Assembly (NCBI GenBank): GCA_045651525.1
Contig: JAZRSO010000031.1
Span: 3,219-67,218, forward strand
From: Candidatus Enterousia sp.
GTDB lineage: Bacteria; Pseudomonadota; Alphaproteobacteria; Rs-D84
Length of the DNA stretch: 64,000 nucleotides
Direction of reading: 5' to 3'
Shown here: positions 10,702 to 49,873 of the stretch, in pieces
Position numbering within the stretch: the first letter of the stretch is position 1
Layout of the letters: the number at the start of each line of letters is the position of its first letter
Position numbers and translations under genes: made by a program
The notes under the pieces: model-generated
The model's input: the letters and a program-made list of their open reading frames with translations, nothing else
What the model was told of the DNA's origin: nothing
Databases searched by the model: none

Positions 10702-12321
10702 ATGGCAAAAGATATTATTTTTGATACTGAAAAAATGGCGGCCGGTGTTGATAAACTGGCGAACGCGGTAAAAATCACTATGGGCCCCAAGGGACGCACA
10801 GTCGTTATTGAAAAATCATATGGTGCACCTGTTGCAACCAAAGACGGTGTTACCGTGGCCAAGGCCGTGTCATTAAAAGACCCCCAAGAAAACATCGGCG
10901 CACGCATGGTTCAAGAAGTCGCAAAAAAAGCAGGCGATGACGCAGGTGACGGCACAACAACCGCAACTGTATTGGCGCAAAAACTTATCCGCGAAGGTCG
11001 TCGTGTTATCGCCGCAGGTATGAATCCAATGGATGTTAAACGCGGTATAGATATGGCAACTGCGGCCGTTATCGCAGACATTGATGCGCACGCACGCCCT
11101 GTCAAAGACAGCAGCGAAATTGCACAAGTTGCAACTATTTCTGCGAATTCTGATTCAGACATCGGCGAAAAAATCGCAAACGCAATGGAACGCGTCGGCA
11201 AAGAAGGCGTTATTACAGTTGAAGAAGCCAAGGGTCTGGACACAGAAATCGACGTTGTCGAAGGTATGCAATTTGACCAAGGGTTTATGTCGCCCTATTT
11301 TGTTACAAACAGTGAAAAAATGTTGGCAGAACTGGACGGCGCACAAATCTTGGTTTCTGAAAAGAAAATCACGGGTCTGCAGGCATTGTTGCCAATTTTG
11401 GAACCAATTGCCCAGTCTGGCAAACCACTGTTGATTATTGCCGAAGATGTTGAATCCGAAGCATTGGCAACATTGGTACTGAACCGCCTGCGTGGTGGGT
11501 TAAAGGTTTGCGCGGTCAAGGCACCTGGATTTGGTGACAGACGCAAAGAAATGCTGAAAGATATTGCGATTGTTACAGGCGCAACTGTTATTTCTGATGA
11601 TATGGGTATGACATTTGAAAACATCAGCCCAATGGTACTGGGCAGTGCAAAAAAAGTCGTTGTTTCCAAAGACTCTACCCTGTTGGCGCACGGTGGCGGT
11701 GATAAATCCGCGATTGACGCACGTGCAGACGAAATCCGTGTTGCTATTGCCGCATCAACCAGTGATTACGACCGTGAAAAACTGTCTGAAAGATTGGCAA
11801 AACTGGTCGGTGGTGTTGCTGTTATCAAGGTTGGTGGCATGACCGAAGTCGAAGTAAAAGAAAAGAAAGACCGTGTTGATGACGCACTGGCTGCGACACG
11901 TGCCGCTGTGGCCGAAGGTATCGTTGCCGGTGGCGGTATTGCACTGGTACGCGCAGTGGCTGCACTGGAAAATTTAACAGGCGCAAACACAGACCAAAAT
12001 GTTGGTATTGATATTGTACGCCGTGCAATTATTGCGCCATGCGCCCAGATTGCTGAAAACGCTGGCACATCTGGCGAAATTGTTGTGGGCAAGGTTATGG
12101 AATCATCTGATTACAACTTTGGTTACAACGCACAATCTGGCGAATATGTTGACATGATGGCGGCGGGCATTATTGACCCGGCCAAGGTTGTCAAGACAGC
12201 AATCGCAGCGGCGGCCAGCACAGCTGGTGTAATGCTGACCACGGGCGCAGTTATGACAGAAATCCCCGAAGAAAAACCATCCACCCCACCAATGGCGGGT
12301 GGCATGCCAGGAATGATGTAA
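10702..12321 (+). CDS. groEL: chaperonin GroEL
   Basis: 539 aa with [10 protein letters not shown] and a C-terminal GGMPGMM tail. Confidence 0.98.
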
Positions 12322-12347
12322 AAAATCCCCCAAACGGGGGATTTTTT
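12322..12347 (+). terminator. intrinsic terminator after groEL (palindromic, A-tract/T-tract flanked)
   Basis: aaaaaTCCCCCaaacGGGGGAtttttt directly after the groEL stop. Confidence 0.8.
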
Positions 12348-12367
12348 ATTGTTTTTACAAAATAAAG

Positions 12368-12396
12368 TTGAAAATCCAAATAAAATACAATAGAAT
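12368..12396 (+). promoter_or_regulatory. sigma70-type promoter of cassette 1
   Basis: TTGAAA (12368..12373), 17-nt spacer, TAGAAT (12391..12396). An identical sequence lies at 21716..21744. Confidence 0.55.
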
Positions 12397-12637
12397 CCGC
12401 CTTGAACGAACAGGGATGTCCGTTCGGGGCCTTCATAAGCCCACCAGAAAGCGGTGTCAAAAAAAACGACACTGTATCCGTCAGACACAAGGCGCGGATG
12501 CGTCTTTTATATTCCCCAACCGCGTTGTCGGGGAGCCGTCAGTGTATACAACAGGGTTTCCCCGAAGACTGACGGGATCAGACTTTTTGGTGATTTATGA
12601 ACTCCCCGACCATCATTCCTGTGATGGTCTTTTTTTA
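12397..12637 (+). promoter_or_regulatory. structured 5' leader RNA ending in an intrinsic terminator (riboswitch/attenuator candidate, class unknown), copy A
   Basis: Several local hairpins plus the long-range helix 12442..12451/12583..12592. Terminator gaccatca-ttcctg-tgatggtc + T7 at 12608..12636, 26 nt before the ATG. A second copy at 21745..21985 carries compensatory changes. Confidence 0.65.
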
Positions 12638-12662
12638 ACAAAAAAATACGGGGATGTATATC

Positions 12663-15600
12663 ATGGCGAAAAAAATTGCACGTTTACCAGCAAAGTCAAA
12701 AACGGCATTAAAAAAAATTATTACAGTAAAAAACGCAGACGGTGACCCAGATACCACCGCAGAAATTCTAATCCAAAATAAAATCAAATACACACCAAAG
12801 GTATCTGTGATTATACCTGTGTATAATGTCGAGCAATATTTGCGTGAATGTTTGGATTCTGTTGTAAATCAGACCTTGCGTGAAATTGAAATCATCTGTG
12901 TTGATGACGGTTCAACTGACAATTCGCTGGACATCTTGAAAGAATACGCCAGCAAAGACAACCGTATTACAGTTATAAAACAACAGAATCTGCATGCAGG
13001 CGTCGCCCGCAACGCAGGCCTGTCAGTTGCCCGCGGGGAATACTTATCGTTCCTGGACAGCGACGATTTCTTTGAATTGAATATGTTGGAAGTGGCGCTG
13101 AATGCCTGCATAGTAGATAATGTAGATATGGCTATTTGGGGCGGAAAAGCTTTCGAAAATGGTAACTATAAAATTTTGAACTGGGTATTTGACACAAAAC
13201 AAATACAAAATTTAAAGCTTTTTTCAAGCGCCGACAAAGAAATTGCTGCGCGAGTATTTCAAATTATATGCGGCTGGCCAACAAATAAGCTTTACAGCTC
13301 AAAATTATTAAAAAAATCTAAATTTCGCTTTTCTTCCGCACATCATCATAACGACACATCTTTTGTGATGTCTAATGTTGTTTTTGCCACAAAAATGACG
13401 TACATACAAGACTTATATTACATTTACAGAAGAAATAGCAATAGTATTAGCGCGAACAAAGACAAACAAGTTGCTGCTTTTGCACAAAGTCTGATAGATA
13501 CATATAATAATATAAAAAAACTTAAAGTATATCCACAAATTGAGCGTAGTTTTATAAACTATGTTGTAGATTTTTCAGTTCATTATTACGACTCTCTTCG
13601 ATTTAAAGAATCTAAAGAAGAAGCAATAAAATTATGCACAGAGTTATATAATAAATTTGTTCAAGATAAGGAAGTTAGTTATTTTTATAACAAAGAAAAA
13701 TATTACAAGTTTAAAAACTCCATTTGTAACATAGACAATGAAATTCCTGTGATATTATCCTCAGACGACAATTACGCACCTTATATGTATGTAACTATGT
13801 TATCGATATTAAAAAATGCATCCAAATCTAGTTTTTATGACTTTTATTTGCTTATTCCTGGCGATTTTTCAAAAAAAAATAAAAAAAATATTTTACAATT
13901 AAAAAACAAATATAATTGTGACGTACATTTTATAAACTTGAACGATACTTTTAAAAACACTAAAATGTCTATAAAACATATTAGTTATGTGACTTATTTT
14001 AGACTTCTTGCTGCTAATTTATTACCCGCCAAATATTCGAAATGTATATATTTGGATACAGATATTTGCGTTTGCTCTGATTTGAATAAATTATACGAAT
14101 TTGATATTGAAGACAATTATGTTGCTGGCGTACCAGCAGCCGCATACATTTTTAATAAAGATATGCACATAAAAAGATTAAAACTCCAATCTGTTGATAC
14201 TTATATAAATGCCGGTGTTTTGATTATGAACTTGAAAGAAATAAGAAAAGATAATCTTACAGAAAAATTCTTGTCTTTAATGAACAATAATTACGAATCA
14301 CAAGATCAGGACATTGTAAATGTTGCTTGTTATAAACGAATAAAAATATTGCCGTTAAGATTTAATTTGATGACCAAATACGCAGGGCTATTTAATCAAA
14401 AACTGCAATCTTACACTGCGTTAAAAGAAATATACGAAGAATCAAACATAAAAGAAGCTCTAGAAAAACCTGTGATAATACATTTTGCAAATCCTGAAAA
14501 ACCATGGCAAAATAAAAAATTACCACTGTCCGATATATGGTGGTCATATGCATATGCAACTCCGTATTTTCATAAAAAACGTAATATAAAACCATACCTG
14601 CTGTTTCCGTATTATCTGATTGCGATGGTGTTTATGAAGTATATTAAAATGCCTGTGTTAAAGTTTGTTAAACATACTAAACAAATATGGTATTCGCACA
14701 GCCATCGTGGAAAAATGGATATGCTGAACAAAAATTTCACAAATATTATGCAATCAGTAACATCTGTTAAAAACGATATGACAAATCAAATAACACAGAT
14801 AAAAAATCAGCAAAGCAATCTGGAAAAACAAATTGCAGATTTAAGACACACAACTGGTGTAAAATCAAATGACTTGTCACAACAGATTGCTGATTTTCAA
14901 TCAAACGCGTCACAAAACAGCGATGATTTGGTGCAAAAAATCATCGATTTAAATACTGTAACAGAAAACAAATCAAACGACCTGTCACAGCAGATTGCTG
15001 ATTTTCAATCAAGCGCATCGCAAGGTAACGATGCCTTAGCGCAAAAAATCATCGATTTAAATACCGTGACAGAAAGTAAATCAAACGACCTGTCACAGCA
15101 GATTGCTGATTTTCAATCAAACGCGTCACAAAATAACGATGCCTTGGCGCAAAAAATCATTGATTTAATAAATACAACAAAAGACATCCCTGATACAATT
15201 GCGCAACATGCGTCAGAACAGATAAAGGCGATACAACATAATGTTGAAACATTAAATCAACAAAACAAGGACACTCAATCCAATATTATCAATACTGTTG
15301 ATCAGATTAAAAAACACGCTGATGAATTGACAGTAATGAATTCCGAACCGTATTGGGCGCATGTTTATCATGACACAACAGCTAATACAACATGGCTGAA
15401 AAACAAAAGTGTTTCACCTGGACGCTGGGCGATTTCATACATCGTGTTGTATGTGTTGTACAGAATTTTGGATGAAGTAAAGCCAAAATCTATACTGGAA
15501 TGTGGATTGGGGCAATCGTCCAAACTGACGATACAATATGCAGATTCACATAACGCAGATTTAACAATTTGCGAGAATAATCCAGAATGGTTGTCTTTCT

Positions 15601-15986
15601 TTCAACGTCAATTCCCGACCGCGGACAAATACACAACTATTCTTGATACAGAAATGGTTAATATTGTTCCAGAACATGAATCTAGAACCTATGCCAATTT
15701 TAAACCGACAATTGGAGATAAAAAATTCAATTTGGTCTTAATTGATGGGCCACTGGGAAGTCCACATTATTCACGTCCTGAAATTTTGGATATTGTGGAT
15801 AATCTGGATAAATCGTTCGTAATATTGCTGGATGACATGAACAGAATTGGCGAACAGGAAACGTGGCAATTATTAAAACAAAAATTACACAGCAAAGGCA
15901 TTGAATTCAAAGAACGCAAATATTCATCCGACAAAACAGTTGGTTTGATATGCTCGATGGATTTGGCTTATCTAACATCGTTATAA
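12663..15986 (+). CDS. giant multidomain glycosyltransferase: GT2 + GT8 + hydrophobic anchor + 3x36-aa coiled-coil repeats + SAM-methyltransferase-like C-terminal domain
   Basis: GT2: VSVIIPVYNVEQYL..VDDGSTDNS..LDSDD. GT8: IPVILSSDDNYAPY..YLDTDICV..NAGVLIMN..QDQDI. Anchor: KPYLLFPYYLIAMVFMKYI. C-terminus: ILECGLGQSS..LVLIDGP..LLDDMNR. The track ORF starts at 12654, but ATG 12663 has better SD spacing. Confidence 0.85.
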   Translation: MAKKIARLPAKSKTALKKIITVKNADGDPDTTAEILIQNKIKYTPKVSVIIPVYNVEQYLRECLDSVVNQTLREIEIICVDDGSTDNSLDILKEYASKDNRITVIKQQNLHAGVARNAGLSVARGEYLSFLDSDDFFELNMLEVALNACIVDNVDMAIWGGKAFENGNYKILNWVFDTKQIQNLKLFSSADKEIAARVFQIICGWPTNKLYSSKLLKKSKFRFSSAHHHNDTSFVMSNVVFATKMTYIQDLYYIYRRNSNSISANKDKQVAAFAQSLIDTYNNIKKLKVYPQIERSFINYVVDFSVHYYDSLRFKESKEEAIKLCTELYNKFVQDKEVSYFYNKEKYYKFKNSICNIDNEIPVILSSDDNYAPYMYVTMLSILKNASKSSFYDFYLLIPGDFSKKNKKNILQLKNKYNCDVHFINLNDTFKNTKMSIKHISYVTYFRLLAANLLPAKYSKCIYLDTDICVCSDLNKLYEFDIEDNYVAGVPAAAYIFNKDMHIKRLKLQSVDTYINAGVLIMNLKEIRKDNLTEKFLSLMNNNYESQDQDIVNVACYKRIKILPLRFNLMTKYAGLFNQKLQSYTALKEIYEESNIKEALEKPVIIHFANPEKPWQNKKLPLSDIWWSYAYATPYFHKKRNIKPYLLFPYYLIAMVFMKYIKMPVLKFVKHTKQIWYSHSHRGKMDMLNKNFTNIMQSVTSVKNDMTNQITQIKNQQSNLEKQIADLRHTTGVKSNDLSQQIADFQSNASQNSDDLVQKIIDLNTVTENKSNDLSQQIADFQSSASQGNDALAQKIIDLNTVTESKSNDLSQQIADFQSNASQNNDALAQKIIDLINTTKDIPDTIAQHASEQIKAIQHNVETLNQQNKDTQSNIINTVDQIKKHADELTVMNSEPYWAHVYHDTTANTTWLKNKSVSPGRWAISYIVLYVLYRILDEVKPKSILECGLGQSSKLTIQYADSHNADLTICENNPEWLSFFQRQFPTADKYTTILDTEMVNIVPEHESRTYANFKPTIGDKKFNLVLIDGPLGSPHYSRPEILDIVDNLDKSFVILLDDMNRIGEQETWQLLKQKLHSKGIEFKERKYSSDKTVGLICSMDLAYLTSL
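14862..15185 (+). repeat. 3 tandem 108-bp (36-aa) in-frame repeats inside the giant glycosyltransferase gene
   Basis: KSNDLSQQIADFQSNASQNSDDLVQKIIDLNTVTEN occurs three times. Unit starts are about 14862, 14970 and 15078. Confidence 0.9.
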
Positions 15987-16013
15987 AAAATCCCCCGTTT
16001 GGGGGATTTTTTT
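15987..16013 (+). terminator. intrinsic terminator, inverted copy of the groEL terminator hairpin
   Basis: aaaaTCCCCCgtttGGGGGAttttttt. It is shared by the convergent fabZ. Confidence 0.8.
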
Positions 16014-19261: not shown

Positions 19262-21670
19262 GTGGCATATATGGCAACACTGACACTTGGAAAATCTGTA
19301 ACAACTGACGCTGTTCGCAGCAAAAAGGGAGATTCCGTTTTTGTTGAACGACGTCGTCGTGTTATCGCACCTGACAGCAAGGAATTGCGTGACGAACCAA
19401 AGGCGCCTGTGGCACAAAAAAATGCCGCAGATGAAAAACTGCGTGCAGTGTTGGCCGCCGCCAAGGCACGTGAAGAAGAACGTAAAAAGCGCGAGGCCGA
19501 AGAAGAAGCCGCACGTGCTGCACGCGCTGCTGAAATCGAACGCGAAAACCGCGAATACGAAAAAGTAAAATCGCAATTAGCGGCACGCGAAACAACACCA
19601 CAGGCATCAGAACCTGCCGAAGAAGCGCCACAAACACGTTCTAAACCTGCACCACAGCAAAAAGTATTTACAAATAACGCTGTTGCTGGGGGCGCGCGTA
19701 AAAATCGTGATAATGACGATGAAGAACGCGGGAATAAGTTTAATAACTCTAAAAAAGACTTTAAGAAGTCTGGCAAAATTCATCTGCGCGACATTGTTAT
19801 CGGTGATGGCGATGACGAGGATGAAATCGGTTTGCGTGGCACAAATCGCCGCCGCTCCGAAGCGTCATTAAAACGTTTCCGCGAAAAAGCACGCGCGGTA
19901 TTTTCTGCCCCACAAAAAGTAGAACGCGTTGTCACATTGGGCGATACAATTACTGTCAAAGATCTGGCTGCTGCAATGGCAGAAAAAGCAGGTAATGTTA
20001 TCAAAAAACTGATGGAAATGGGTATGATGGTATCTGTAAATCAGTCTATTGATGCAGATACAGCAGAACTTATCGCTGGGGAATTTGGTGCAACTGTTAA
20101 ACGCGTTGATGTAAAACCATATGCAGAAATCTTGGAACGTGAACCAAACCCAGAAAACATGACGCCACGCGCGCCTGTTGTTACGGTTGTGGGACACGTT
20201 GACCATGGTAAGACATCACTGTTGGACGCATTCCGTAACGCAAATGTTGCCGCAGGCGAAGCTGGCGGTATTACCCAGCACGTTTCTTCGTACGAAGTTA
20301 AAACACAAACAGGTCCAATGATTACTTTCTTGGACACACCTGGTCACGAAACATTTACTGCTATGCGCGCACGTGGTGCCCAGATGGCAGATATCGTTGT
20401 GTTGGTTGTGGCTGCAAACGATTCAATTATGCCACAGACAATCGAAGCAATAAATCATATTCGCGCGGCCAAGGTTCCATTTATCGTTGCAATCAATAAA
20501 ATTGACCTGCCCGAAGCGAATCCAATGCGCGTAAAAACAGACTTGTTACAACAAGAAGTTCAGGTCGAAGAAATGGGTGGCGATGTTCAATGCGTTGAAA
20601 TTTCTGCAACCAAGAAAATCGGACTGGACAAACTGGAAGAAGCAATCTTGTTACAGGCAGAAATGATGGAATTAAAGGCAGACGCAGAAATGCCAGCTGT
20701 TGCATACGTGGTCGAAGCAAAACAAGAAAAAGGTTTGGGTTCTGTCGCAACTGTCTTGATGCGTCAAGGAACATTGAAAATTGGCGACGTGTTCGTTGTT
20801 GGCGAAACATTTGGTCGTGTTCGTGGCTTGATAAATTCAAACGGCGAACGCGTAAAATCTGTACGTCCTGGTCAGCCTGCAATTGTACTGGGGTTGGACT
20901 CGGTTCCGGGCGCAGGCGATGAACTGCGCGTTATGGAAACAGACGCACAGGCACGCGAAGTTGCTGCATACCGCGCACAAAAGTCCAAAGACAAGGCAAA
21001 CGCAGTTAAACGTTCCAGTTTGGAAGAACTGTTCGCCAAACGTGATGATAACAAAAAACTGATATTGCCAATTATATTGCGTGCAGACGTACAGGGTTCT
21101 GTTGAGGCAATTTCTGACATGGTCAAAGAAATCAATACTGACAAGGTTGGTGTTGAAATACTGTCGTCTGGCGTGGGACAAATCACCGAAGGCGACATCC
21201 GTCTGGCGACTGCATCTGGTGCGATTATTATCGCGTTTAATGTTCGTGCAGATTCTGTGGTTCGCGATATGGCACGTGCAGGTGGCGTTGATATCAGATA
21301 TCACAATGTTGTATATCGTATCACAGACGAAATCAAAGAAATCTTGTCTGGTAAATTGGCACCAGAAAAACGCGAAACATTTATCGGATACGCAGATGTC
21401 ATTGCCCTGTTCACAGTTGGCAAGGGTATCCGCGTTGCAGGTTGCCGTATGACCGAAGGCACCATCAAGAAAGACGCATTTGTGCGACTGTTGCGTAACA
21501 ATGTTGTTATATACGATGGTAAAATCGGACAACTGCGCCGCGAAAAGAACGAAGTCAAAGAAGTTTCTGGTGGTGTTGAATTCGGTATGTCTTTTGATAA
21601 GTATAACGACCTAAAAGAAGGCGACCGGGTCGAATGTTACGAAGTTGAAGAAGTTCGTGCAGAAATCTAA
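19262..21670 (+). CDS. infB: translation initiation factor IF-2
   Basis: G domain [24 protein letters not shown]. Start is either GTG 19262 or ATG 19271. Confidence 0.95.
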
Positions 21671-21672
21671 AC

Positions 21673-21696
21673 ATCCCCCAAACGGGGGATTTTTTT
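21673..21696 (+). terminator. intrinsic terminator after infB, same hairpin as after groEL
   Basis: aTCCCCCaaacGGGGGAttttttt. Confidence 0.8.
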
Positions 21697-21715
21697 ATGT
21701 TTTTACAAAATAAAG

Positions 21716-21744
21716 TTGAAAATCCAAATAAAATACAATAGAAT
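21716..21744 (+). promoter_or_regulatory. sigma70-type promoter of cassette 2
   Basis: TTGAAA-17-TAGAAT, identical to 12368..12396. Confidence 0.55.
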
Positions 21745-21985
21745 CCGCCTTGAACGAACAGGGATGTCCGTTCGGGGCCTTCATAAGCCCAGCTAAAATC
21801 AGTGTCAAAAAAAACGACACTGCATCCGTCAGGTACAAGGCGCGGATGCGTCTTTTATATTCCCCAACCGCGTGGTCGGGGAGCCGTCAGTGTATACAAC
21901 AGGGTTTCCCGAAGACTGACGGGATCAATATTTTAGCTGATTTATGAACTCCCCGACCATCATTCCTGTGATGGTCTTTTTTTTA
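21745..21985 (+). promoter_or_regulatory. structured 5' leader RNA with terminator, copy B
   Basis: Near-identical to 12397..12637 apart from a few substitutions. Four of these preserve pairing in helix 21790..21799/21930..21939. Terminator hairpin 21955..21976 + T8. Confidence 0.65.
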
Positions 21986-22007
21986 CAAAAAAATGGAGTT
22001 GATAAAA

Positions 22008-25000
22008 ATGTTTAAAAAGCATAGTTGGGAATATAAATTATTATCAAAATCAAAGGAATTCAATAAAAAATGGTATTTACAAACATACCCTGATGTGGCC
22101 AAGGCAAAAGTTGACCCAATTGAACATTATATCAACCACGGCTGGAAAGAAGGAAGAAATCCTGGCCCAACTTTCAATACAGTCTCTTATCTTACATTAA
22201 ATCCGGACGTTCGTAATGCAAATATAAACCCATTGATTCATTGGGAACGTTTTGGCAGGCAAGAAGGACGTAACACAGGTACCAATTATGGACAAGTGCC
22301 AAAACAACAAAATAAAACCGTAAAAATTGTTGATGCCGTAATATTTCCAAAGGATGCAAAAAAATATACCTATGACACCAAAAATATTAAAACAAATAAA
22401 AAATATAAAAGAATTGCTGTTTTTGCGTCTTATTCGGGTGATGGCACAATTGCAGACTATGTTGTTTACTATTTAAAAGAATTGAAAAAGGTTTGCGACG
22501 CTATTGTTTTTGTTGCAGACAATCCAATAATCCCAGCGGAGGCCGAAAAAATAAAAGATATTGTCATATATGCCCAATTTGAACGTCATAACGAATATGA
22601 CTTTGGTTCATATAAACGCGGTTATATATGGTTAAAAAAACAAGGATTATTGAAACGTTGTGATGAATTGTTGTTGTGTAATGATTCTTGCTATGGCCCT
22701 GTGTATCCATTCAAGGATGTCTTTGATAAAATGTCTAAAAAAGATTGTGATTTTTGGGGGATGATACAAAACGATGATGTAAAATATCATTTGCAATCTT
22801 GGTTTTATCTCTTTAAACATAATGTTTTAACGTCCAGATTGTTGGATAAATTTTTTGAAAAAGTACAACATCAAAATAGTTTTTGGGATTATGTTTTTAA
22901 ATATGAATTTGAACTAACAAGATTCTTAATAGACAACGGGTTTGTCGCAGACGCTTTTCTAGATTTAAAATTAAAAGATTTAGAATGGCTCTATACAAAA
23001 AGTGGATACGGCAATATAACTGTCGCTCCCCTGACATTGATTCAAAATTACAACTTCCCATTTATTAAGATAAAATGCTTTACCAATGGTTTTACATATG
23101 CTTTAGAAGAACAGCCTAGACAAGTTTTAGATTTCTTAAAAACAGCAAATCGAATATTGTATGATTTGATTATAAAAGATCTAAAACGCAGAAAGGTTTA
23201 TTCAAATATTCTGAATACAGATATAGATTTTCAGATAAAAAATCACGACATAATATCGTTTGATATATTTGATACATTATTAATACGTCCGTATGTTCAG
23301 CCAACTGATTTGTTTTATCATATGGAAAAGATTTATAATATTCCTGGATTCGCTGACGCTCGTATAAAAGCCGAATTATACGCCAGAGAAAAATCAAATA
23401 AAAAAGATATAACATTCGATGAAATATATGAAAATCTATTGCCAAAATATCAAAAATTAAAAGCAACAGAATTGCAAATGGAACAAAATTGTTTACAAGC
23501 AAATCCGTTGGTTTTTGATATTTATCAAAAAGCACTCAAACAAAACAAAACGATCATTATTGTATCTGATATGTACTTGTCTTCAAAATTTTTAAAACAA
23601 GTGTTACAACAAAAAGGATATGAAAAAATTGATGACATTTATGTTTCGGGGGAATATGGAAAAACAAAGGGCGACGGCAGCCTGTTTGAACATATATTGA
23701 AAAAACTTGCTATAAAACCCGAAAAAATGTTGCATATTGGCGACAATCACTACAGCGACATAAAAAAACCAAGAGAATACGGTATAAGTGCATATCAAGT
23801 ACCAAAATATATTGACTTATTCTTTATGCATGGTGGCAATTTAAAATACAAGCAATTTTATGAAACTCAGCCAGATTTTATGCGCAGTTATATTGTGGCT
23901 TTGATTGCACAAAATCAAATGACCAACAAAATGTCTTATTGGCAACAAATTGGTTATAGTTTGGCAGGCCCCTTATGTTTGGGTTATACGCAAATGATAG
24001 CCAAAGAAACAAAACTAAATGATATTGATACATTATTATTCGTTTCACGCGATGGTTATTTATTACAAAAAGCATACAATAAAATTTGCAATAAACCCGT
24101 CGAAAATCGATACATATATGCACCTAGAATATTAAATCTGAAATTATTTGGGGATCATGGAAATCAACCTCATTATATTCAATCGTATATGGATATATTA
24201 TTAAAAAACATTCCGGATTTAAATATTAACACAAACAAACAAACAATAGACTTCAAACAACGTAAGATTGTTGATTGGCATACAAAAAACAAAACTGAAT
24301 ACGAAGCTTATATTAAAACGTTAAAAATTTACGGAACAAATATCGCATCAGTAGATATGACAACTGGCGCATATACATCGCAAAAAATATTAGAGCGAGT
24401 ATTCAAAGATAGATATAAAATGTCTTTTTATAGTGCTTGTTTCGTTAAACGTCCAGAATATAAACATGTTTCTTATTTGCCGGATTTAATATTTCCTGCT
24501 GCACAAGAAAATATTATCAATTTAACAGAATTGTTAATAACAGCACCAGAACTGCCTGTGGTTGATATAAAAGATAAAAAACCTGTATACAAAAAATCAA
24601 ATGCACATGATGAATATCGTATAAAAATTATACAATCCATAGAACAAGGCGTGATGAAATTTATAGATGATTTCTGTATAAAATGCGGCACTATAATAAA
24701 AGACGATATGTGCGAAATTCCTGTACATGATGTCTGGTTTTTACTGGAGTCCTATTGTAGGTTTTTATCAAATACTGATAAATCATATCTTAAACATGTG
24801 TATCACAGTGCAGATATTGAGAATAAAGAATTTGTTTCAATGTTAGATAAGATAATACAACAGTACGAGCCAGAACAATCTGTACATATGCAACACACAC
24901 AAGAGCATGTACAAAAACAAAAAAATAAGAGACACAAATTAAAGCCATATTTATTATTTCCATACTATTTACTGGCTACTCTGGTTATGAAATATATTTT

Positions 25001-25025
25001 ATTACCAATAAAAAAACGAAAATAA
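22008..25025 (+). CDS. giant polysaccharide-modification protein: N-terminal NPDV/EGR repeats + rhamnan-synthesis-F (RgpF)-like domain + HAD-like domain + C-terminal anchor
   Basis: YPDVAKAKVDPIEHYINHGWKEGRNP and NPDVRNANINPLIHWERFGRQEGRN. RgpF-like: IAVFASYSGDG..LLCNDSCYGPVYPF..DFWGM. HAD: ISFDIFDTLLIRPY..IGDNHYSDI. Ends with KPYLLFPYYLLATLVMKYILLPIKKRK. The track ORF starts at 21993, but ATG 22008 has SD GGAG. Confidence 0.8.
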   Translation: MFKKHSWEYKLLSKSKEFNKKWYLQTYPDVAKAKVDPIEHYINHGWKEGRNPGPTFNTVSYLTLNPDVRNANINPLIHWERFGRQEGRNTGTNYGQVPKQQNKTVKIVDAVIFPKDAKKYTYDTKNIKTNKKYKRIAVFASYSGDGTIADYVVYYLKELKKVCDAIVFVADNPIIPAEAEKIKDIVIYAQFERHNEYDFGSYKRGYIWLKKQGLLKRCDELLLCNDSCYGPVYPFKDVFDKMSKKDCDFWGMIQNDDVKYHLQSWFYLFKHNVLTSRLLDKFFEKVQHQNSFWDYVFKYEFELTRFLIDNGFVADAFLDLKLKDLEWLYTKSGYGNITVAPLTLIQNYNFPFIKIKCFTNGFTYALEEQPRQVLDFLKTANRILYDLIIKDLKRRKVYSNILNTDIDFQIKNHDIISFDIFDTLLIRPYVQPTDLFYHMEKIYNIPGFADARIKAELYAREKSNKKDITFDEIYENLLPKYQKLKATELQMEQNCLQANPLVFDIYQKALKQNKTIIIVSDMYLSSKFLKQVLQQKGYEKIDDIYVSGEYGKTKGDGSLFEHILKKLAIKPEKMLHIGDNHYSDIKKPREYGISAYQVPKYIDLFFMHGGNLKYKQFYETQPDFMRSYIVALIAQNQMTNKMSYWQQIGYSLAGPLCLGYTQMIAKETKLNDIDTLLFVSRDGYLLQKAYNKICNKPVENRYIYAPRILNLKLFGDHGNQPHYIQSYMDILLKNIPDLNINTNKQTIDFKQRKIVDWHTKNKTEYEAYIKTLKIYGTNIASVDMTTGAYTSQKILERVFKDRYKMSFYSACFVKRPEYKHVSYLPDLIFPAAQENIINLTELLITAPELPVVDIKDKKPVYKKSNAHDEYRIKIIQSIEQGVMKFIDDFCIKCGTIIKDDMCEIPVHDVWFLLESYCRFLSNTDKSYLKHVYHSADIENKEFVSMLDKIIQQYEPEQSVHMQHTQEHVQKQKNKRHKLKPYLLFPYYLLATLVMKYILLPIKKRK

Positions 25026-25048
25026 AATCCCCCGTTTGGGGGATTTTT
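25026..25048 (+). terminator. intrinsic terminator, inverted copy of the infB terminator hairpin
   Basis: aaaTCCCCCgtttGGGGGAttttt. Confidence 0.8.
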
Positions 25049-26972: not shown

Positions 26973-27884
26973 TTGAACGATGCGGTTACAGAATTTATAG
27001 AATATTTAATTCATACGAAAAACTATTCGTCGCATACTGCAACCGCATACGAAGGTGATATTTCTGATTTTCTGAAATTCTATCAAGATTTCTTGGGCAC
27101 ACCACCCTTTCCGCGTGATTTATCACGGGCAGATACATTGTGTTTTCGTTCGTATCTGGCAAATCGACAACGGCGTGGTCTGTCGCACAAATCGACGGCA
27201 CGTGCATTGTCGTCACTGCGTGGGTTTTATAAATTCTTGGCACGAAAATACGATGTAAAAAATAATGCAATCGGGCTGATTTCTTCGCCAAAGGTTCCGC
27301 GAAAACTGTCCAAGGCAATTGACCCCATTGATATTGAACATATGCACGGGGCAATTCGCGATATTGACGCCGCAGAACCATGGCTGGCGGCACGTGATTG
27401 GGCATTGGTTTTGCTGTTATTTGGGTGTGGCCTGCGTATTTCCGAGGTATTATCACTGACCAACAGTGATGTTCGTGGCCACCCAGACGTGTTGCGAATA
27501 ACAGGTAAAGGGAACAAAGAACGACTGGTGCCTGTGTTGCCGGCCGTGTGGGTTGCGATTGATAAATATATCAATGTACGCCCATTTGGCAATATGCCCA
27601 ATGACGAACTGTTTCGCAGTGTTCGCGGCCTGCCAATGACACCACGTATGGCGCAAAAGGTTGTGGAAAACCTGCGTCATTATCTGCAATTACCAGATTA
27701 TGTAACACCACACGCATTACGTCATACGTTTGCAACCGCCCTGTTGGCAGGTGGCGCAGATTTGCGCAGTCTGCAAGAATTGTTGGGACATTCATCCCTG
27801 TCCACAACACAATTATACACCAAGGTAAACATGGCGGAAATCACAAATATTTATGCCAACGCACATCCGCGCGCACACGATTAA
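26973..27884 (+). CDS. tyrosine recombinase, XerC/XerD type
   Basis: N-terminal core-binding pattern YL..TKNYSSHTATAYEGDISDFLKF. Catalytic HALRHTFAT..LLGHSSLSTTQLYT. TTG start. Confidence 0.85.
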   Translation: MNDAVTEFIEYLIHTKNYSSHTATAYEGDISDFLKFYQDFLGTPPFPRDLSRADTLCFRSYLANRQRRGLSHKSTARALSSLRGFYKFLARKYDVKNNAIGLISSPKVPRKLSKAIDPIDIEHMHGAIRDIDAAEPWLAARDWALVLLLFGCGLRISEVLSLTNSDVRGHPDVLRITGKGNKERLVPVLPAVWVAIDKYINVRPFGNMPNDELFRSVRGLPMTPRMAQKVVENLRHYLQLPDYVTPHALRHTFATALLAGGADLRSLQELLGHSSLSTTQLYTKVNMAEITNIYANAHPRAHD

Positions 27885-34652: not shown

Positions 34653-34729
34653 GCATCCATAGCTTAACTGGATAAAGCATCTGACTACGGATCAGAAGAC
34701 TGAGGGTTCGAATCCTTCTGGATGCGCCA
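34653..34729 (+). tRNA. tRNA-Arg (anticodon ACG), CCA encoded
   Basis: Hand-folded cloverleaf. Acceptor GCATCCA/TGGATGC, D arm GCTT..AAGC, anticodon arm TCTGA-CTACGGA-TCAGA, T arm GAGGG-TTCGAAT-CCTTC, 77 nt. Followed by hairpin + T7. Confidence 0.92.
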
Positions 34730-35183: not shown

Positions 35184-35288
35184 CAACAAACAAACAAACA
35201 AACAAACAAACAAACAAACAAACAAACAAACAAACAAACAAACAAACAAACAAACAAACAAACAAACAAACAAACAAACAAACAAACA
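35184..35288 (+). repeat. tetranucleotide microsatellite (CAAA)25
   Basis: 25 perfect CAAA units at 35187..35286 plus partial units. They lie between ATG 35144 and ATG 35289. Confidence 0.98.
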
Positions 35289-36581
35289 ATGAAAATGTTT
35301 TTGTCTGTTTTTACGGCTTTGTTAATTACATCTGTAACACCAGTGTTTAATGCCATGGCCGCCACACCCCGAAGGAACGGCACCACAACAACAACCGCAC
35401 GCAGTAAATCAAACACCCCAACAACCGCATTTACCGACGCAGAAAAGAAATTAAAAGATTTAGAAAACGCATTGAAAGCCAAATTGGCAGAAATAAAAAA
35501 AGCAGAAGAAGACAAAGAAGCAAAAACGCCAGATAACACAATTGACACAAGCCAAACAATAGACAAAAAAGAAGATTGCGAAAAAATAACAGAACTCAGG
35601 TCTGGCACAGAATGTTATAAAGACGCCCAAACCGGTAAATGGAAAATTCGCTGGACATTTAAGGTTGGCGACGATTGCCCGGTAAAGGACTGCAGTGTTG
35701 ACAAGGCTGTGACAAAATGCGTATATGAAAAGGTAACAGAATCTTCGTTTAGTTGCAAGATTACAGAATGCATTGACACCCATGAAGTTATCGGGGGCGT
35801 TTGCAAGAAAAAAGAATCCGACTCAGCAAATGAAGAAAACAATCAGCCAGACGAACATGCAAAATGCTGGGAAAATGTAGATTTTGCAACTGCTGGTAAC
35901 TGGACTGGTACCTATTGCGATATTTCAGAGTGCGAAGACGGCTATAAAGTAGACCGCAGCAGAACAGCATGTGAAGAAGACGAACAGCCAGACGAACATG
36001 CAGAATGCTGGAAAGAGGTAGATTACGCAACCGCCGGAACATGGTCAGGTACCTATTGCAAAATTACCCAATGTCAAAATGGGTATCATGTGTCGGAAAA
36101 CGATTTGTCAAAATGTGAAGAAAACTGTTGGGAAAAACAAGACAGAAACGCGAAGTATGGACGCGTGTTAAATAATACTTGCACCATTACAGAATGTAAA
36201 AGGGGTTATTATATCTATAATAATAAATGCGAGGAAGAAATAAGAACATCCGGCTGTCACTACGATTTTGATGAACAAAAATATGGTGTCGGATACAAAT
36301 GGATACAAGAATCCGAAAAAGATACAGAATCAGACGGAAAACAATACTGTAAAATCACAAAATGTCACCCGTGCACGACCTTGAAAGAGAACAAATGCGT
36401 TTTAACTAACAAATGCATGCTAGTAGAAGATACTGTTGTCGCTTGTTGGGATTTAGGCGGCCAACCTGAAAAAGCAAATTATGAAAAAAGATATTGGTGT
36501 TATTGTTCTGATGGCTACAAAAGAGATTATTTTCAATTTACAACCCAACGGTGCGTTAATAACGAGCTTATAGATATGTAA
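35289..36581 (+). CDS. secreted Cys-rich repeat protein (unknown family); an alternative SD-equipped start at 35144 is out of frame in this sequence
   Basis: Signal peptide MKMFLSVFTALLITSVTPVFNAMA, a charged linker, then repeated C..I(T/S)(E/Q)C..GY......C modules, including a 141-bp tandem duplication (35844/35985). Confidence 0.8.
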   Translation: MKMFLSVFTALLITSVTPVFNAMAATPRRNGTTTTTARSKSNTPTTAFTDAEKKLKDLENALKAKLAEIKKAEEDKEAKTPDNTIDTSQTIDKKEDCEKITELRSGTECYKDAQTGKWKIRWTFKVGDDCPVKDCSVDKAVTKCVYEKVTESSFSCKITECIDTHEVIGGVCKKKESDSANEENNQPDEHAKCWENVDFATAGNWTGTYCDISECEDGYKVDRSRTACEEDEQPDEHAECWKEVDYATAGTWSGTYCKITQCQNGYHVSENDLSKCEENCWEKQDRNAKYGRVLNNTCTITECKRGYYIYNNKCEEEIRTSGCHYDFDEQKYGVGYKWIQESEKDTESDGKQYCKITKCHPCTTLKENKCVLTNKCMLVEDTVVACWDLGGQPEKANYEKRYWCYCSDGYKRDYFQFTTQRCVNNELIDM

Positions 36582-38892: not shown

Positions 38893-38933
38893 TTTTTTGC
38901 CTTCCTATATTTTTTATAATGTTTTATTAAAAC

Positions 38934-39271
38934 GTCGGGTTTCTGGTGCCAGGTACCCGACAGACCCCGCAATAACTTAAACGAATGTGGTCAACAATCG
39001 CCAACCATATTCAAGCCATTATTAGGCAGCCATTGCAATGCGAACATTGTCGTTCGCAGCGATTCTATCGCCATTCAGTTTTTAGTCGGCTTTTAACGAC
39101 GCCATGTCGGATTCAACCAATTTGTCTTTCATCATCTGTCGAATCTATGTCAGCCCCATAACCAAATATGACACAAATCATATCAAGTAATGGTGGAGCT
39201 GTGGGGTACCGCCCCCCAGTCCAAAATGACTATTGCACAACGGCTTCAGAATCATCATCACTTGCGTGACG
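38934..39271 (-). ncRNA. ssrA: tmRNA (ssrA), circularly permuted two-piece type
   Basis: Minus strand. The acceptor piece ends ..GGACUGGGGGGCGGUACCCCACAGCUCCACCA at 39191. The coding piece starts GGGGCUGACAUAGAUUCGAC at 39157. Tag frame GCUGCGAACGACAAUGUUCGCAUUGCAAUGGCUGCC UAA UAA = AANDNVRIAMAA** (39060..39019). The G3:U pair is present in the acceptor stem. Confidence 0.88.
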
Positions 39272-39276
39272 GGGTA

Positions 39277-40347
<1,071 letters not shown>

Positions 40348-45740: not shown

Positions 45741-46085
45741 ACAGTTAAACCCACCCCGTCACTGCGTGACACCCCTCCCCGCGGGGTGCGGAACGCACCG
45801 GCGTCGGAGGGGAACTTGTCACCGGTTTTAAGTTCTCCTCCCTGGGAGGAGTACGGCGTAGCCGGGAGGTGGGTATGACAATGTTTTTTATTTTCCTTGT
45901 CACGCCTATCGAAGACAGTTAAACCCACCCCGTCACTGCGTGACACCCCTCCCCGCGGGGTGCGGAACGCACCAGCGTCGGAGGGGAACATGTCACCGGT
46001 TTTAAGTTCTCCTCCCTGGGAGGAGTACGGCGCAGCCGGGAGGTGGGTATGACAATGTTTTTTGTTTTCCTTGTCACGCCTATCG
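45741..46085 (+). repeat. two tandem copies of a 174-bp GC-rich palindromic element (R1)
   Basis: Unit starts at 45741 and 45915. There are nested hairpins (gtcac/gtgac, cccctcc/ggagggg, ggtgcg/cgcacc, ctcctcc/ggaggag) enclosed by cccacc../..ggtggg. Confidence 0.9.
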
Positions 46086-46091
46086 CTCATC

Positions 46092-46197
46092 TTTGTCACT
46101 CCTGCGTAGGCAGGAGTGGGACCGTGCAGTGTGAGCGTAGCGAGCCAAAATAACACATATTACACATGTTTGAATATTGTAAATTTCATAGACCCTA
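46092..46197 (+). repeat. about 106-bp repeat R2, copy 1
   Basis: gtcactcctgcgtaggcaggagtggga..gtgagcgtagcgagccaaaataa..tttgaatattgtaaatttcatagaccctat. Second copy at 48674..48780. Confidence 0.9.
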
Positions 46198-46286
46198 TCC
46201 CTGCCTTCGCAGGGATGACAAAAAACTATGCTAGGCGTGACAAAATACACATTCGCTAGGCGTGACAATTGTGTTTCTTCGGTATT

Positions 46287-48673: not shown

Positions 48674-48780
48674 TTTGCCACTCCTGCGAAGGCAGGAGTG
48701 GGACTATACAGTGTGAGCGTAGCGAGCCAAAATAATACATATTACACACGTTTGAATATTGTAAATTTCATAGACCCTAT
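48674..48780 (+). repeat. repeat R2, copy 2
   Basis: Same orientation as 46092..46197, with a few substitutions. Confidence 0.9.
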
Positions 48781-48853
48781 TCGCTTCGCGGCACTTCGTA
48801 GTCCTGCCTGCGCAGCAATGACAAAGAAGAAAGTAGGAATGACAAGAAAAAAC

Positions 48854-49122
48854 AAACCCACCCCGTCACTGCGTGACACCCCTCCCCGCGGGGTGCGAAA
48901 CGCACCGGCGTCAGAGGGGAACTTGTACACAGGTTTTAAGTTCTCCTCCCTGGGAGGAGTACGGCGCAGCCGGGAGGTGGGTATGACAGAGTTTTTTTGT
49001 TTTCCTTGTCACGCCTATCGAAGACAGTTAAACCCACCCCGTCACTGCGTGGCACCCCTCCCCGCGGGGTGAGGGACGCACCGGCGTCGGAGGGGGACTT
49101 GTCACCCGGTTTAAGTTCTCCT
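48854..49122 (+). repeat. R1 copies 3 (full) and 4 (truncated)
   Basis: aaacccaccccgtcactgcgtgacacccctccccgcgggg.. recurs at 48854 and 49030. Copy 4 stops after ..ggtttaagttctcct. Confidence 0.9.
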
Positions 49123-49258
49123 GCCTGCGCTAGGCGTTACAAAACGTGCCTACGAAATGTCGTAAAAAAAATCCCCATTTCGGTTTTTTTACACAGAATA
49201 AACCGTTGACAATCTGTGTATTTGTGCTACAACAATATCAGAAAAAAAGGATACCATT

Positions 49259-49873
49259 ATGCCACGATATACCGAAGCGTATAAAATTTCTGTATTAAAA
49301 CGCACAAAAGTCGTAGGGGTAAGCGCTGCGTCCAAGGAAAAAAACCTGCCGATGAAGACTATTCTGCGTTGGAACTATATTTATCACATTTATCACAAAA
49401 TGGAATTGCGCACCTTTACAGATGAAGAAAAAATCAAAATTTTAAAGTATGCTAATAAATACGGTATGACATCCGCAATGCGTAAGTATAACGTTGATGT
49501 GGCAACCCAACGCGTGTGGAATAAAAAATTTAATATCTATAAAAAAACTGGCAGACGTACAAAAGCAACCTACAAGAAAAAATATAAACATTACAACACT
49601 GAATACAAAATGGAAGTGTTGTTGTTTACAAAACAATATGGTATCAGCAAGGCTGGTCGTAAATATAATCTGCCGGCATCTACGATAAAGTCGTGGAATG
49701 CCGAATTAAAAGTTTACACACCACGCAAACACCGCACTTTTACCGACAGCAAAAAAGCAGAAATCATCCAATTCGCCACAGAAAATTCTGTGGCACAGGC
49801 TGCAAAAAAATACAACCTGGGCAGCGGGTACATCAATAATTGGATAAAAGATTTAACACAAAATAAAAAATAA
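49259..49873 (+). CDS. protein made of four tandem transposase-OrfA/Psq-type HTH modules, with no catalytic domain
   Basis: Four repeats of about 45-50 aa: (Y/F)T.E.K..(I/V)L......G.S.A.RKYN(L/V)...T...WN. Examples are FTDEEKIKILKYANKYGMTSAMRKYNVDVATQRVWN and YNTEYKMEVLLFTKQYGISKAGRKYNLPASTIKSWN. Confidence 0.7.
   Translation: MPRYTEAYKISVLKRTKVVGVSAASKEKNLPMKTILRWNYIYHIYHKMELRTFTDEEKIKILKYANKYGMTSAMRKYNVDVATQRVWNKKFNIYKKTGRRTKATYKKKYKHYNTEYKMEVLLFTKQYGISKAGRKYNLPASTIKSWNAELKVYTPRKHRTFTDSKKAEIIQFATENSVAQAAKKYNLGSGYINNWIKDLTQNKK

Follow-up and report, generated by a model that had tools for sequence, protein, structure and literature searches.

The DNA analysed here is a 64,000-nt stretch (hereafter, the window) from Candidatus Enterousia, a genus of uncultured gut alphaproteobacteria in the order Rs-D84 with genomes of ~0.75-1.0 Mb (PMC12306168); we put the genome size at about 0.9 Mb. 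It holds two copies of a promoter-driven RNA leader of about 235 nt, each of which sits in front of a large glycosyltransferase gene and carries an intrinsic terminator that ends 15-25 nt before the Shine-Dalgarno (SD) sequence. Copy A follows groES-groEL and precedes a protein of about 1100 amino acids with GT2 and GT8 domains, and copy B follows nusA-infB and precedes a protein of about 1000 amino acids with RgpF and HAD-like domains (Pfam). It had been predicted from the letters of the window that the region 21673..22007 repeats 12322..12662, as a unit of terminator hairpin, promoter, leader, and leader terminator. The repeat is real, with about 94% identity between 12321-12647 in copy A and 21669-21994 in copy B, and it does contain the promoter, leader, and leader terminator; the first hairpin, which is the terminator of groEL or infB and a cassette boundary, lies outside the leader RNA. 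We describe here the conservation and predicted folding of this leader, and propose that it may control transcription termination ahead of the glycosyltransferase genes.

The differences between the two copies are concentrated in two 10-nt segments, which face each other as the arms of a long helix (P1). In copy A, caccagaaag (12442-12451) lies opposite ctttttggtg (12583-12592), and in copy B, cagctaaaat (21790-21799) lies opposite attttagctg (21930-21939). As anticipated in the original prediction, four of the ten pairs differ in the pairwise alignment and all four remain paired. Three changed on both sides (C-G to G-C, A-U to U-A, and G-C to U-A), and one on a single side (G.U to A-U). The alignment also contains the U.G to C-G change (T to C) that had been noted in the tatccg/cggatg hairpin (12475-12480/12495-12500). 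The minimum free energy (MFE) folds of the two copies, which have much lower energies than dinucleotide-shuffled sequences (z = -5.7 and -6.9), include P1, and the helix extends outward beyond a small internal loop by eight invariant pairs (12432-12439/12594-12601).

Nine further copies were gathered from close relatives (L001, L002, L005, L006, L010, L015, L017, L019, and L026, with L010 truncated at its 5′ end), through look-ups of downstream and flanking proteins and a scan of GTDB species representatives, and were located by nhmmer; together with the two in the window, this gives a total of 11. Uncompensated changes in the variable arms, for which the original prediction had suggested that more copies be inspected, occur in none of the nine, and no variable-arm pair is broken in any of the 11. 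In the 10-copy alignment, which leaves out L026, 637 of 637 pair cells are standard pairs, compared with only 36-43% when the partners are slid by 1-3 columns, and three pairs of P1 changed on both sides and four on one side. Variation is found in 28 of the 239 columns across 11 copies, and 10 of these fall within the 20 arm columns (Fisher p = 8e-6).

The arms fall into a small number of types. Type A is found in window copy A, L001, L006, and L026. Type B is found in window copy B and L010, with an A-U to G.U change in L005, L015, and L017, and with a C-G to U.G change in L019. L002 carries a third, shortened type (caccaaagu/auuuuggug), in which 9/9 remaining pairs form and whose outer half is A-like and inner half B-like. 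The type of arm is uncoupled from gene and locus: L005 and L017 combine B-type arms with an A-type gene, and L006 and L026 combine A-type arms with a B-type gene. Such shuffling indicates that the leaders recombine, yet the arms stay matched, and an A-type 5′ arm with a B-type 3′ arm was seen in 0/11 copies.

Changes on one side of a pair are informative in their own right. Among the 11 copies, 9/10 one-sided changes in helices P0, P1, P2, and P3 keep the pairing. By our rough estimate, a random substitution preserves a pair about one time in three, so that this outcome would be unlikely without selection. P0-P3 are under selection for pairing. Many of the variant pairs are G.U, which on the opposite strand, or in a cruciform of the DNA, would become A.C mismatches; the signal is therefore one of RNA, specific to the + strand. 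Furthermore, the copies differ in the presence of a single C at alignment column 163 (12560), and this 1-nt indel changes the reading frame, which excludes a leader peptide or other coding function. The open reading frames (ORFs) that can be drawn through the region (12368..12745 and 21750..21947) are thus not conserved, as had been claimed, and the pair-preserving variants, the G.U pairs on the + strand, and the frameshifting indel together uphold the earlier proposal that selection acts on the structure of the RNA and not on a peptide or DNA site. A leader peptide was rejected as a candidate on the grounds of the same indel; a short ORF that crosses the terminator (ATG at 12597) ends differently in A and B.

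The arms also evolve at a different pace from the remainder of the leader. By hand count from the column table, copies A and B differ at 6/218 columns (2.8%) outside the arms and the loop of hairpin 2 (described below), and at nine of the 22 arm and loop columns (41%). The orthologous pair of window copy A and L001 differs at 6/240 columns (2.5%; hand count). The arms diverge >10 times faster than the remaining leader. Such a pace is not expected from relaxed constraint alone, since compensatory evolution is slow; either the arms are old alleles, kept while recombination homogenises the rest, or they are under diversifying selection.

The anatomy of the leader, all of which is on the + strand, is as follows in the coordinates of copy A. 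Transcription is expected from a sigma-70-like promoter, TTGAAA-17-TAGAAT (12368..12396; consensus match), with a probable start site at ~12403. The promoter of leader B (21716..21744) aligns as identical, and in the 9 copies with an aligned upstream flank the promoter is essentially identical, with single-base variants only. The first hairpin, P0 (12399..12430, 10+3 bp), is supported by the fold and by variants in L001 and L006 (C-G to U.G and A.C to A-U), which keep or extend the pairing. It is followed by the 5′ strand of P1 (12432..12451; 21780..21799 in copy B), made up of the invariant outer part and, at 12442-12451, the variable arm that we refer to as the putative "target"; the assignment comes from alignment, fold, and covariation. 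P2 (CGGUGUC-A8C-GACACUG, 12452..12474) has two one-sided changes, both of which preserve pairs, and P3 (UAUCCG/CGGAUG, 12475..12500) has U.G/C-G and A-U/G.U variants. Competing with P3 are a weak terminator-like hairpin (12489-12506) and a pairing of CCGUCAG (12478-12484) with CUGACGG (12569-12575). The folds further predict P4 (UCCCC...GGGGA, 12513..12534), which is invariant, and hence without covariation support, and which would sequester the 5′ strand of a putative antiterminator; position 12526 is polymorphic (T/G), and the polymorphism strengthens P4 as well as the antiterminator. The 3′ strand of P1 (12583..12601; 21930..21948 in copy B) consists of the variable arm, or putative "seed" (12583-12592), and the invariant 12594-12601. 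The leader ends in an intrinsic terminator with a 9-bp stem, followed by U7 in copy A (12608..12636; terminator scan, consensus match) and by U8 in copy B (21955..21984; sequence, fold). The stem of this terminator is invariant in 11/11 copies.

When folded in isolation, the 3′ domain of the leader adopts a module of three helices (12527..12610), which we regard as the candidate antiterminator conformer. Its outer stem, GUCGGGGAG/CUCCCCGAC (12527-12535/12602-12610; also seen in the cmscan alignment), encloses hairpin 1 (CCGUCAG...CUGACGG, 12536-12575), with an internal loop AUACAA...GAA, and hairpin 2 (GAUCA-loop-UGAUU, 12576-12595). The loop of hairpin 2 (12581-12590, alignment columns 184-193) overlaps the variable 3′ arm, and 5/10 loop positions vary. 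This loop and 3′ arm would be the seed and the 5′ arm its upstream target, which would explain why the two arms covary and diverge fastest. In copy B, the module lies at 21875..21957 (Rfam match and constrained fold). The motif CCGUCAG occurs twice in the leader (12478-12484 and 12536-12542), and both occurrences are complementary to CUGACGG at 12569-12575. By analogy with a1 of the phage RNA C4, the upstream occurrence, which competes with hairpin 1 and with P3, may be a second "target" element.

No family reached its cut-off in an Rfam scan of the leader. The best sub-threshold match in the window, for both copies, was to sRNA-Xcc1 (RF02221), with 34.8 bits for copy A (E = 0.027, 12527-12618) and 37.6 bits for copy B (E = 0.0057, 21874-21966), the E-values being those for the whole window. 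The outer stem of the module, GUCGGGGAG/CUCCCCGAC, matches GUCGGGAG/CUCCCGAC of three true members of that family (L025, L028, and L030), bar one extra G-C pair. The two C4 models (C4, RF01695, and c4-a1b1, RF03163) gave no match at E ≤ 0.5 anywhere in the window.

The leader lies directly upstream of a glycosyltransferase gene in 11/11 copies, regardless of the type of gene, the locus (groEL-fabZ or infB-trpS), and the orientation. In the window, gene A (GT2 + GT8) occupies 12663..15986 on the + strand (Pfam), with its start taken from the L001 gene call and an in-frame alternative ATG at 12654; gene B (RgpF + HAD-like) occupies 22008..25025, also on the + strand, with the SD sequence GGAG at 21995-21998 (Pfam, sequence). 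Cassette A is bounded on the left by the palindromic terminator hairpin after groEL, AAAAATCCCCC-AAAC-GGGGGATTTTT (12321..12349; terminator scan), and on the right by an inverted identical copy with the loop GTTT (15983..16011), which is also identical to the hairpin of empty sites. The boundaries of cassette B are the terminator hairpin after infB (21669..21697; sequence, strain comparison) and a second hairpin at 25012..25048 (strain comparison). In the strains compared, every insert has a copy of the palindromic terminator hairpin AAAAAATCCCCC-[AAAC or GTTT]-GGGGGATTTTTT on either side, with the 4-nt loop flipping between the two forms. The groEL-fabZ interval contains no insert in L016 and L022, only a single hairpin, AAAAAATCCCCC-GTTT-GGGGGATTTTTT; it is filled in the forward direction in the window, L001, and L017, and in the reverse direction in L006, L015, L019, and L024. 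The inserted glycosyltransferase genes vary between strains. From these sequence comparisons, the glycosyltransferase genes with their promoter and leader behave as mobile cassettes that insert either way into a terminator hairpin.

Several further observations concern the cassettes. A XerC/D-like recombinase gene is present at 26973-27884 of the window. Short assemblies tend to break at the cassettes, and a FabZ look-up for both leaders of another strain returned only short contigs that end there. Gene A carries 2.8 in-frame repeats of a 108-nt unit (14862-15168; 36 amino acids per repeat), and from the pattern of blast matches in L001, L002, and L005, the number of repeats appears to vary between strains.

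The terminator and the antiterminator module share sequence, and so do P1 and the module. The outer stem of the module (9-12 bp) would take 3-6 nt of the 5′ strand of the terminator. It takes 3 nt in the 9-bp form, and reaches 12 bp and 6 nt where a G is found at 12526 or 21874; in copy B, the G at 21874 gives a 12-bp stem (21872-21883/21949-21960). Since the outer stem consumes the terminator 5′ strand, the module fold would be the read-through form, or "on" state, with the outer stem as antiterminator. P1 (8 invariant plus 10 variable bp) joins the upstream segment to hairpin 2, at its loop and 3′ strand, and P4 would use UCCCC (12513-12517) to hold the same GGGGA that the outer stem uses. 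Together, P1 and P4 would dismantle the module, so that the terminator forms; this would be the "off" state at equilibrium. In nascent RNA that ends before the terminator 3′ strand, the module fold is computed to be 1.9-8.5 kcal/mol less stable than the P1 state. P1 joins the MFE structure once transcription has passed its 3′ strand, which predicts termination by default. Occupation of one P1 arm by some factor would then permit read-through and turn the gene on, and the variable 10 bp would correspond to the seed-target pair of c4-like RNAs. We infer both the logic of the switch and the existence of a trigger from these modelled structures. No protein regulator was identified within the 64-kb window.

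We assign a probability of about 0.5 to the reading that the promoter and the ~235-nt structured, cis-acting leader with its c4-like module control termination before the glycosyltransferase cassettes. Several points weigh against it. The evidence for the leader model is computational throughout and comes from one narrow clade, whose source genomes are 93-96% identical to the window and only shallowly sampled. P4, hairpin 1, the outer stem, and the terminator show no variation among the copies, and covariation thus supports neither the switch nor the module fold. Judging from the models, P1 and the outer stem, which cross as a long-loop pseudoknot, could coexist sterically; strict exclusion holds only between P1 and hairpin 2, and between the antiterminator and both P4 and the terminator. 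As for an effector, there was no match to an Rfam aptamer, and we recognised no ligand, tRNA-binding or protein-binding motif in the leader. With two main arm types, a third, and two wobble variants, the covariation reflects few independent events, and templated quasi-palindrome mutation could have yielded the double changes without pair-by-pair selection. The single exception among the one-sided changes is an uncompensated A to C opposite U in the otherwise invariant outer part of P1 in L026. Both copies miss the RF02221 gathering cut-off of 53 bits, and the inner GNRA hairpin of sRNA-Xcc1, CCC-GAAA-GGG, is GGG-UUU(C)-CCC in Enterousia (12554-12563). Finally, no consistent downstream target of the seed was found across the copies, and arm type is unlinked to gene type.

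One potential downstream target deserves mention. ACCAGCAAAG, within the first codons of gene A (12686-12695), can pair with the A-type 3′ arm over 9 bp with one bulge (-14.2 kcal/mol), about as strongly as the 5′ arm does. We rejected it as a seed target and consider it a probable chance match, as the same gene also stands behind B-type arms without a match.

The alternative that survives best, although we consider it unlikely, is a metabolite riboswitch, in which P1 would close an aptamer formed by P2-P5 and a ligand, such as a nucleotide sugar or second messenger, would stabilise P1 and cause termination. The arms would vary because only their pairing is needed, and the resemblance to sRNA-Xcc1 would be coincidental. 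The predicted fold of the leader does resemble a riboswitch, with its multi-branch junction, the helix that closes it, and a terminator/antiterminator platform; the two states are near in energy; and the interior is highly conserved, with variation limited to a helix. That conservation has another explanation, however. Outside the arms, the paralogues (about 2.8% divergent) are as alike as the orthologues (about 2.5%), and this includes the promoter spacer, so that recent origin or homogenisation, and not a ligand pocket, would account for the identity of the interior. The pace of the arms, >10 times that of the rest, is again not what relaxed constraint alone predicts. Moreover, no Rfam riboswitch family matches the leader, and near-exact scans place it in a single clade, whereas riboswitch classes are usually widespread. 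The near-exact DNA pattern found only two copies among GTDB species representatives, both in Ca. Enterousia, and such patterns found none in JGI metagenomes or in IMG/VR (viral), although diverged relatives would be missed by either search. Glycosyltransferase homologues in other organisms (L003, L004, L007-L009, and L011-L014) gave no nhmmer match to the leader, and their upstream regions appear unrelated.

Less probable again is a free-standing small RNA (sRNA). The ~235-nt transcript, or a processed sRNA-Xcc1-like product of ~90 nt, would act in trans, and the glycosyltransferase gene would be transcribed independently or by leaky read-through. The leader has its own promoter and a strong predicted terminator, equilibrium folding predicts termination by default, and sRNA-Xcc1 itself was detected as an sRNA of ~88 nt in Xanthomonas (PMC2996969). 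Against this, a separate promoter between terminator and gene was not found in copy B, and the one match in copy A is weak and overlapping, the glycosyltransferase gene is 15-25 nt downstream in 11/11 copies, and the unit moves and inverts together. A role in trans would in any case be compatible with attenuation in cis.

It is still more improbable that the matched arms are a by-product of mutation or recombination, be it template switching at a quasi-palindrome, patchy gene conversion between two old alleles, or the inverted repeats of a recombinase. Two main arm haplotypes and a chimera-like third (L002), an arm type that is shuffled with respect to flanking markers and downstream genes through frequent recombination between leaders, and the fact that double changes can arise in one event would all fit. 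Nevertheless, nine one-sided changes, independent of each other and spread over four helices, either produce G.U or re-establish a pair, and only that of L026 breaks one; G.U pairs are meaningless for DNA repeats and functional on one strand only; and neither an A-type 5′ arm with a B-type 3′ arm nor an inverted inter-arm segment occurs in any of the 11 copies. Templated mutation could be the source of the double changes, but as sole explanation it is contradicted by the one-sided, pair-preserving changes. The single inversion that had been put forward as an alternative can be ruled out, as inverting the inter-arm segment regenerates identical arms, and an invertible DNA segment with recombinase repeats was likewise rejected, given the uniform orientation (11/11) and the G.U pairs, which point to RNA.

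Other features of the window were recorded as side observations. A permuted, two-piece alphaproteobacterial transfer-messenger RNA gene (38932-39309, - strand) is ordinary and fits the taxonomic placement, and one ordinary transfer RNA gene is found at 34653-34726 (+). A perfect (AACA)x26 microsatellite (35185-35289) ends exactly at the start codon of an ORF (35289-36581) that encodes 430 amino acids without a Pfam match; the tract is possibly one of slipped-strand phase variation. Further downstream, a G+C-rich 174-nt unit is present in tandem (97% identity), with diverged copies ~3 kb off (45741-46085 and 48843-49192), as is a pair of 107-nt repeats (46092-46198 and 48674-48780). These repeats flank ORFs without family matches, apart from one with a weak Listeria-Bacteroides repeat, and are adjoined by a helix-turn-helix/transposase-like ORF (49259-49873). 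The region may be a mobile element or an array of structured RNAs.

Four true members of the sRNA-Xcc1 family were examined for comparison, one on a Pseudomonas plasmid and three in temperate phages, with scores of 62.8-86.1 bits (L025, 1498-1580; L028, 901-984; L029, 901-985; and L030, 901-987). An ant or BRO gene lies 38-50 nt downstream in 4/4. In all four, the loop of hairpin 2 is complementary to the SD region of this adjacent gene, over 7-11 nt exactly; in L028, we read the pairing by eye as 8 bp including one G.U. The Mannheimia phage member (L030) also bears an identical copy of the target upstream. At the Stx2 phage locus (L028), a C4/c4-a1b1/isrK set, matched by both C4 models, lies just upstream, beside an antirepressor pseudogene. 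An RNAduplex search for upstream targets in the true members was not significant against shuffles, and counts of exact complements were used instead. The sRNA was detected in Xanthomonas (PMC2996969) and the family is annotated as a trans-acting virulence sRNA, but the position of its members upstream of ant/BRO and their SD-complementary loop suggest a c4-type cis/antisense role.

If our reading is correct, the Enterousia leader would be the first case in which the seed/target logic of phage immunity (c4, sRNA-Xcc1) works through an intrinsic terminator to control cellular genes for surface glycans. It would further provide a candidate RNA regulator for a gut lineage that is uncultured and genome-reduced, and whose small genome leaves scant room for dedicated protein regulators; we found no regulatory RNA described for Candidatus Enterousia (order Rs-D84). 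The insertion of cassettes in either orientation within a terminator hairpin points to strain-level variation of the cell surface. One could go further and see in the variable helix a specificity code of the phage-immunity type, reused for surface-glycan genes, although we regard this as a long shot, about as improbable as the free-standing sRNA. On that reading, each leader would hold a seed (the loop of hairpin 2) and a matching target (the 5′ arm); arm classes A, B, and the third (L002) would be old alleles under diversifying selection, with recombination homogenising the rest; and leader RNAs would act in trans on leaders of the same class only, opening or closing P1. A cell with multiple cassettes could then switch its glycosyltransferases independently or in a mutually exclusive manner.

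Among known systems, attenuator leaders (riboswitches, T-boxes, and protein-dependent leaders) share with the Enterousia leader an intrinsic terminator between promoter and start codon, a predicted alternative helix on the 5′ strand of the terminator, a further helix to sequester the antiterminator, and a long helix that closes the structure; the Enterousia leader differs in having no known class of aptamer and in being found in one clade. Leaders of polysaccharide operons (JUMPStart/ops-RfaH, the 5′ untranslated regions of Bacteroides UpxY loci, and Bacillus EAR) resemble it in that one conserved leader serves different surface-polysaccharide loci of a genome, but they act through protein-mediated processive antitermination. 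The ops element GGCGGTAG is absent from 12398-12640 and from 21746-21988, where the nearest sequence is GGCGCGGATG, the Rfam EAR model did not match, and no NusG paralogue was seen beside the cassettes.

The likeness to sRNA-Xcc1 is more detailed. Both have an outer stem around two hairpins, with AUACAA-N-A/GAA in the internal loop of hairpin 1 (AAUACAA...GAA in the members); in both, the second hairpin has a variable loop whose pairing target is in another part of the same transcript; and both are part of a 5′ leader and share the strand of the gene that follows. The Enterousia leader differs in that it lacks the RCCAC tail, its loop has a target ~130 nt upstream rather than at the SD of the next gene, its outer stem overlaps an intrinsic terminator, and the downstream genes encode glycosyltransferases and not ant, BRO, or symE. 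Its host is a reduced-genome alphaproteobacterium, whereas sRNA-Xcc1 is a ~88-nt RNA of integron cassettes, plasmids, and temperate phages. Among five features by which membership might be judged, the leader has the outer stem enclosing two hairpins with the AUACAA/GAA loop, and lacks the other four (a score above cut-off, the GNRA inner hairpin, the SD target, and an ant-type mobile context). We do not assign it to the family; the shared architecture is suggestive of homology.

With C4, the likeness is one of layout, without sequence homology. Between phages P1 and P7, compensating changes in seed and target of C4 set the specificity of immunity, and the Enterousia arms similarly covary while the rest of the leader is constant. 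The 3′ arm and hairpin-2 loop (12581-12592) pair with the upstream segment 12442-12451, with support from covariation, much as the loops of C4, itself a small structured RNA in the leader of the operon that it controls, are complementary to upstream (a1, b1) and downstream sequences (Citron & Schuster 1990, cited in PMC8201110). The Enterousia leader has an upstream target only. C4 blocks translation of icd, and so indirectly the transcription of ant, whereas in Enterousia the readout would be an intrinsic terminator. Seen in this light, the leader would be a module of the c4/sRNA-Xcc1 type with its target upstream, fused to an intrinsic terminator.

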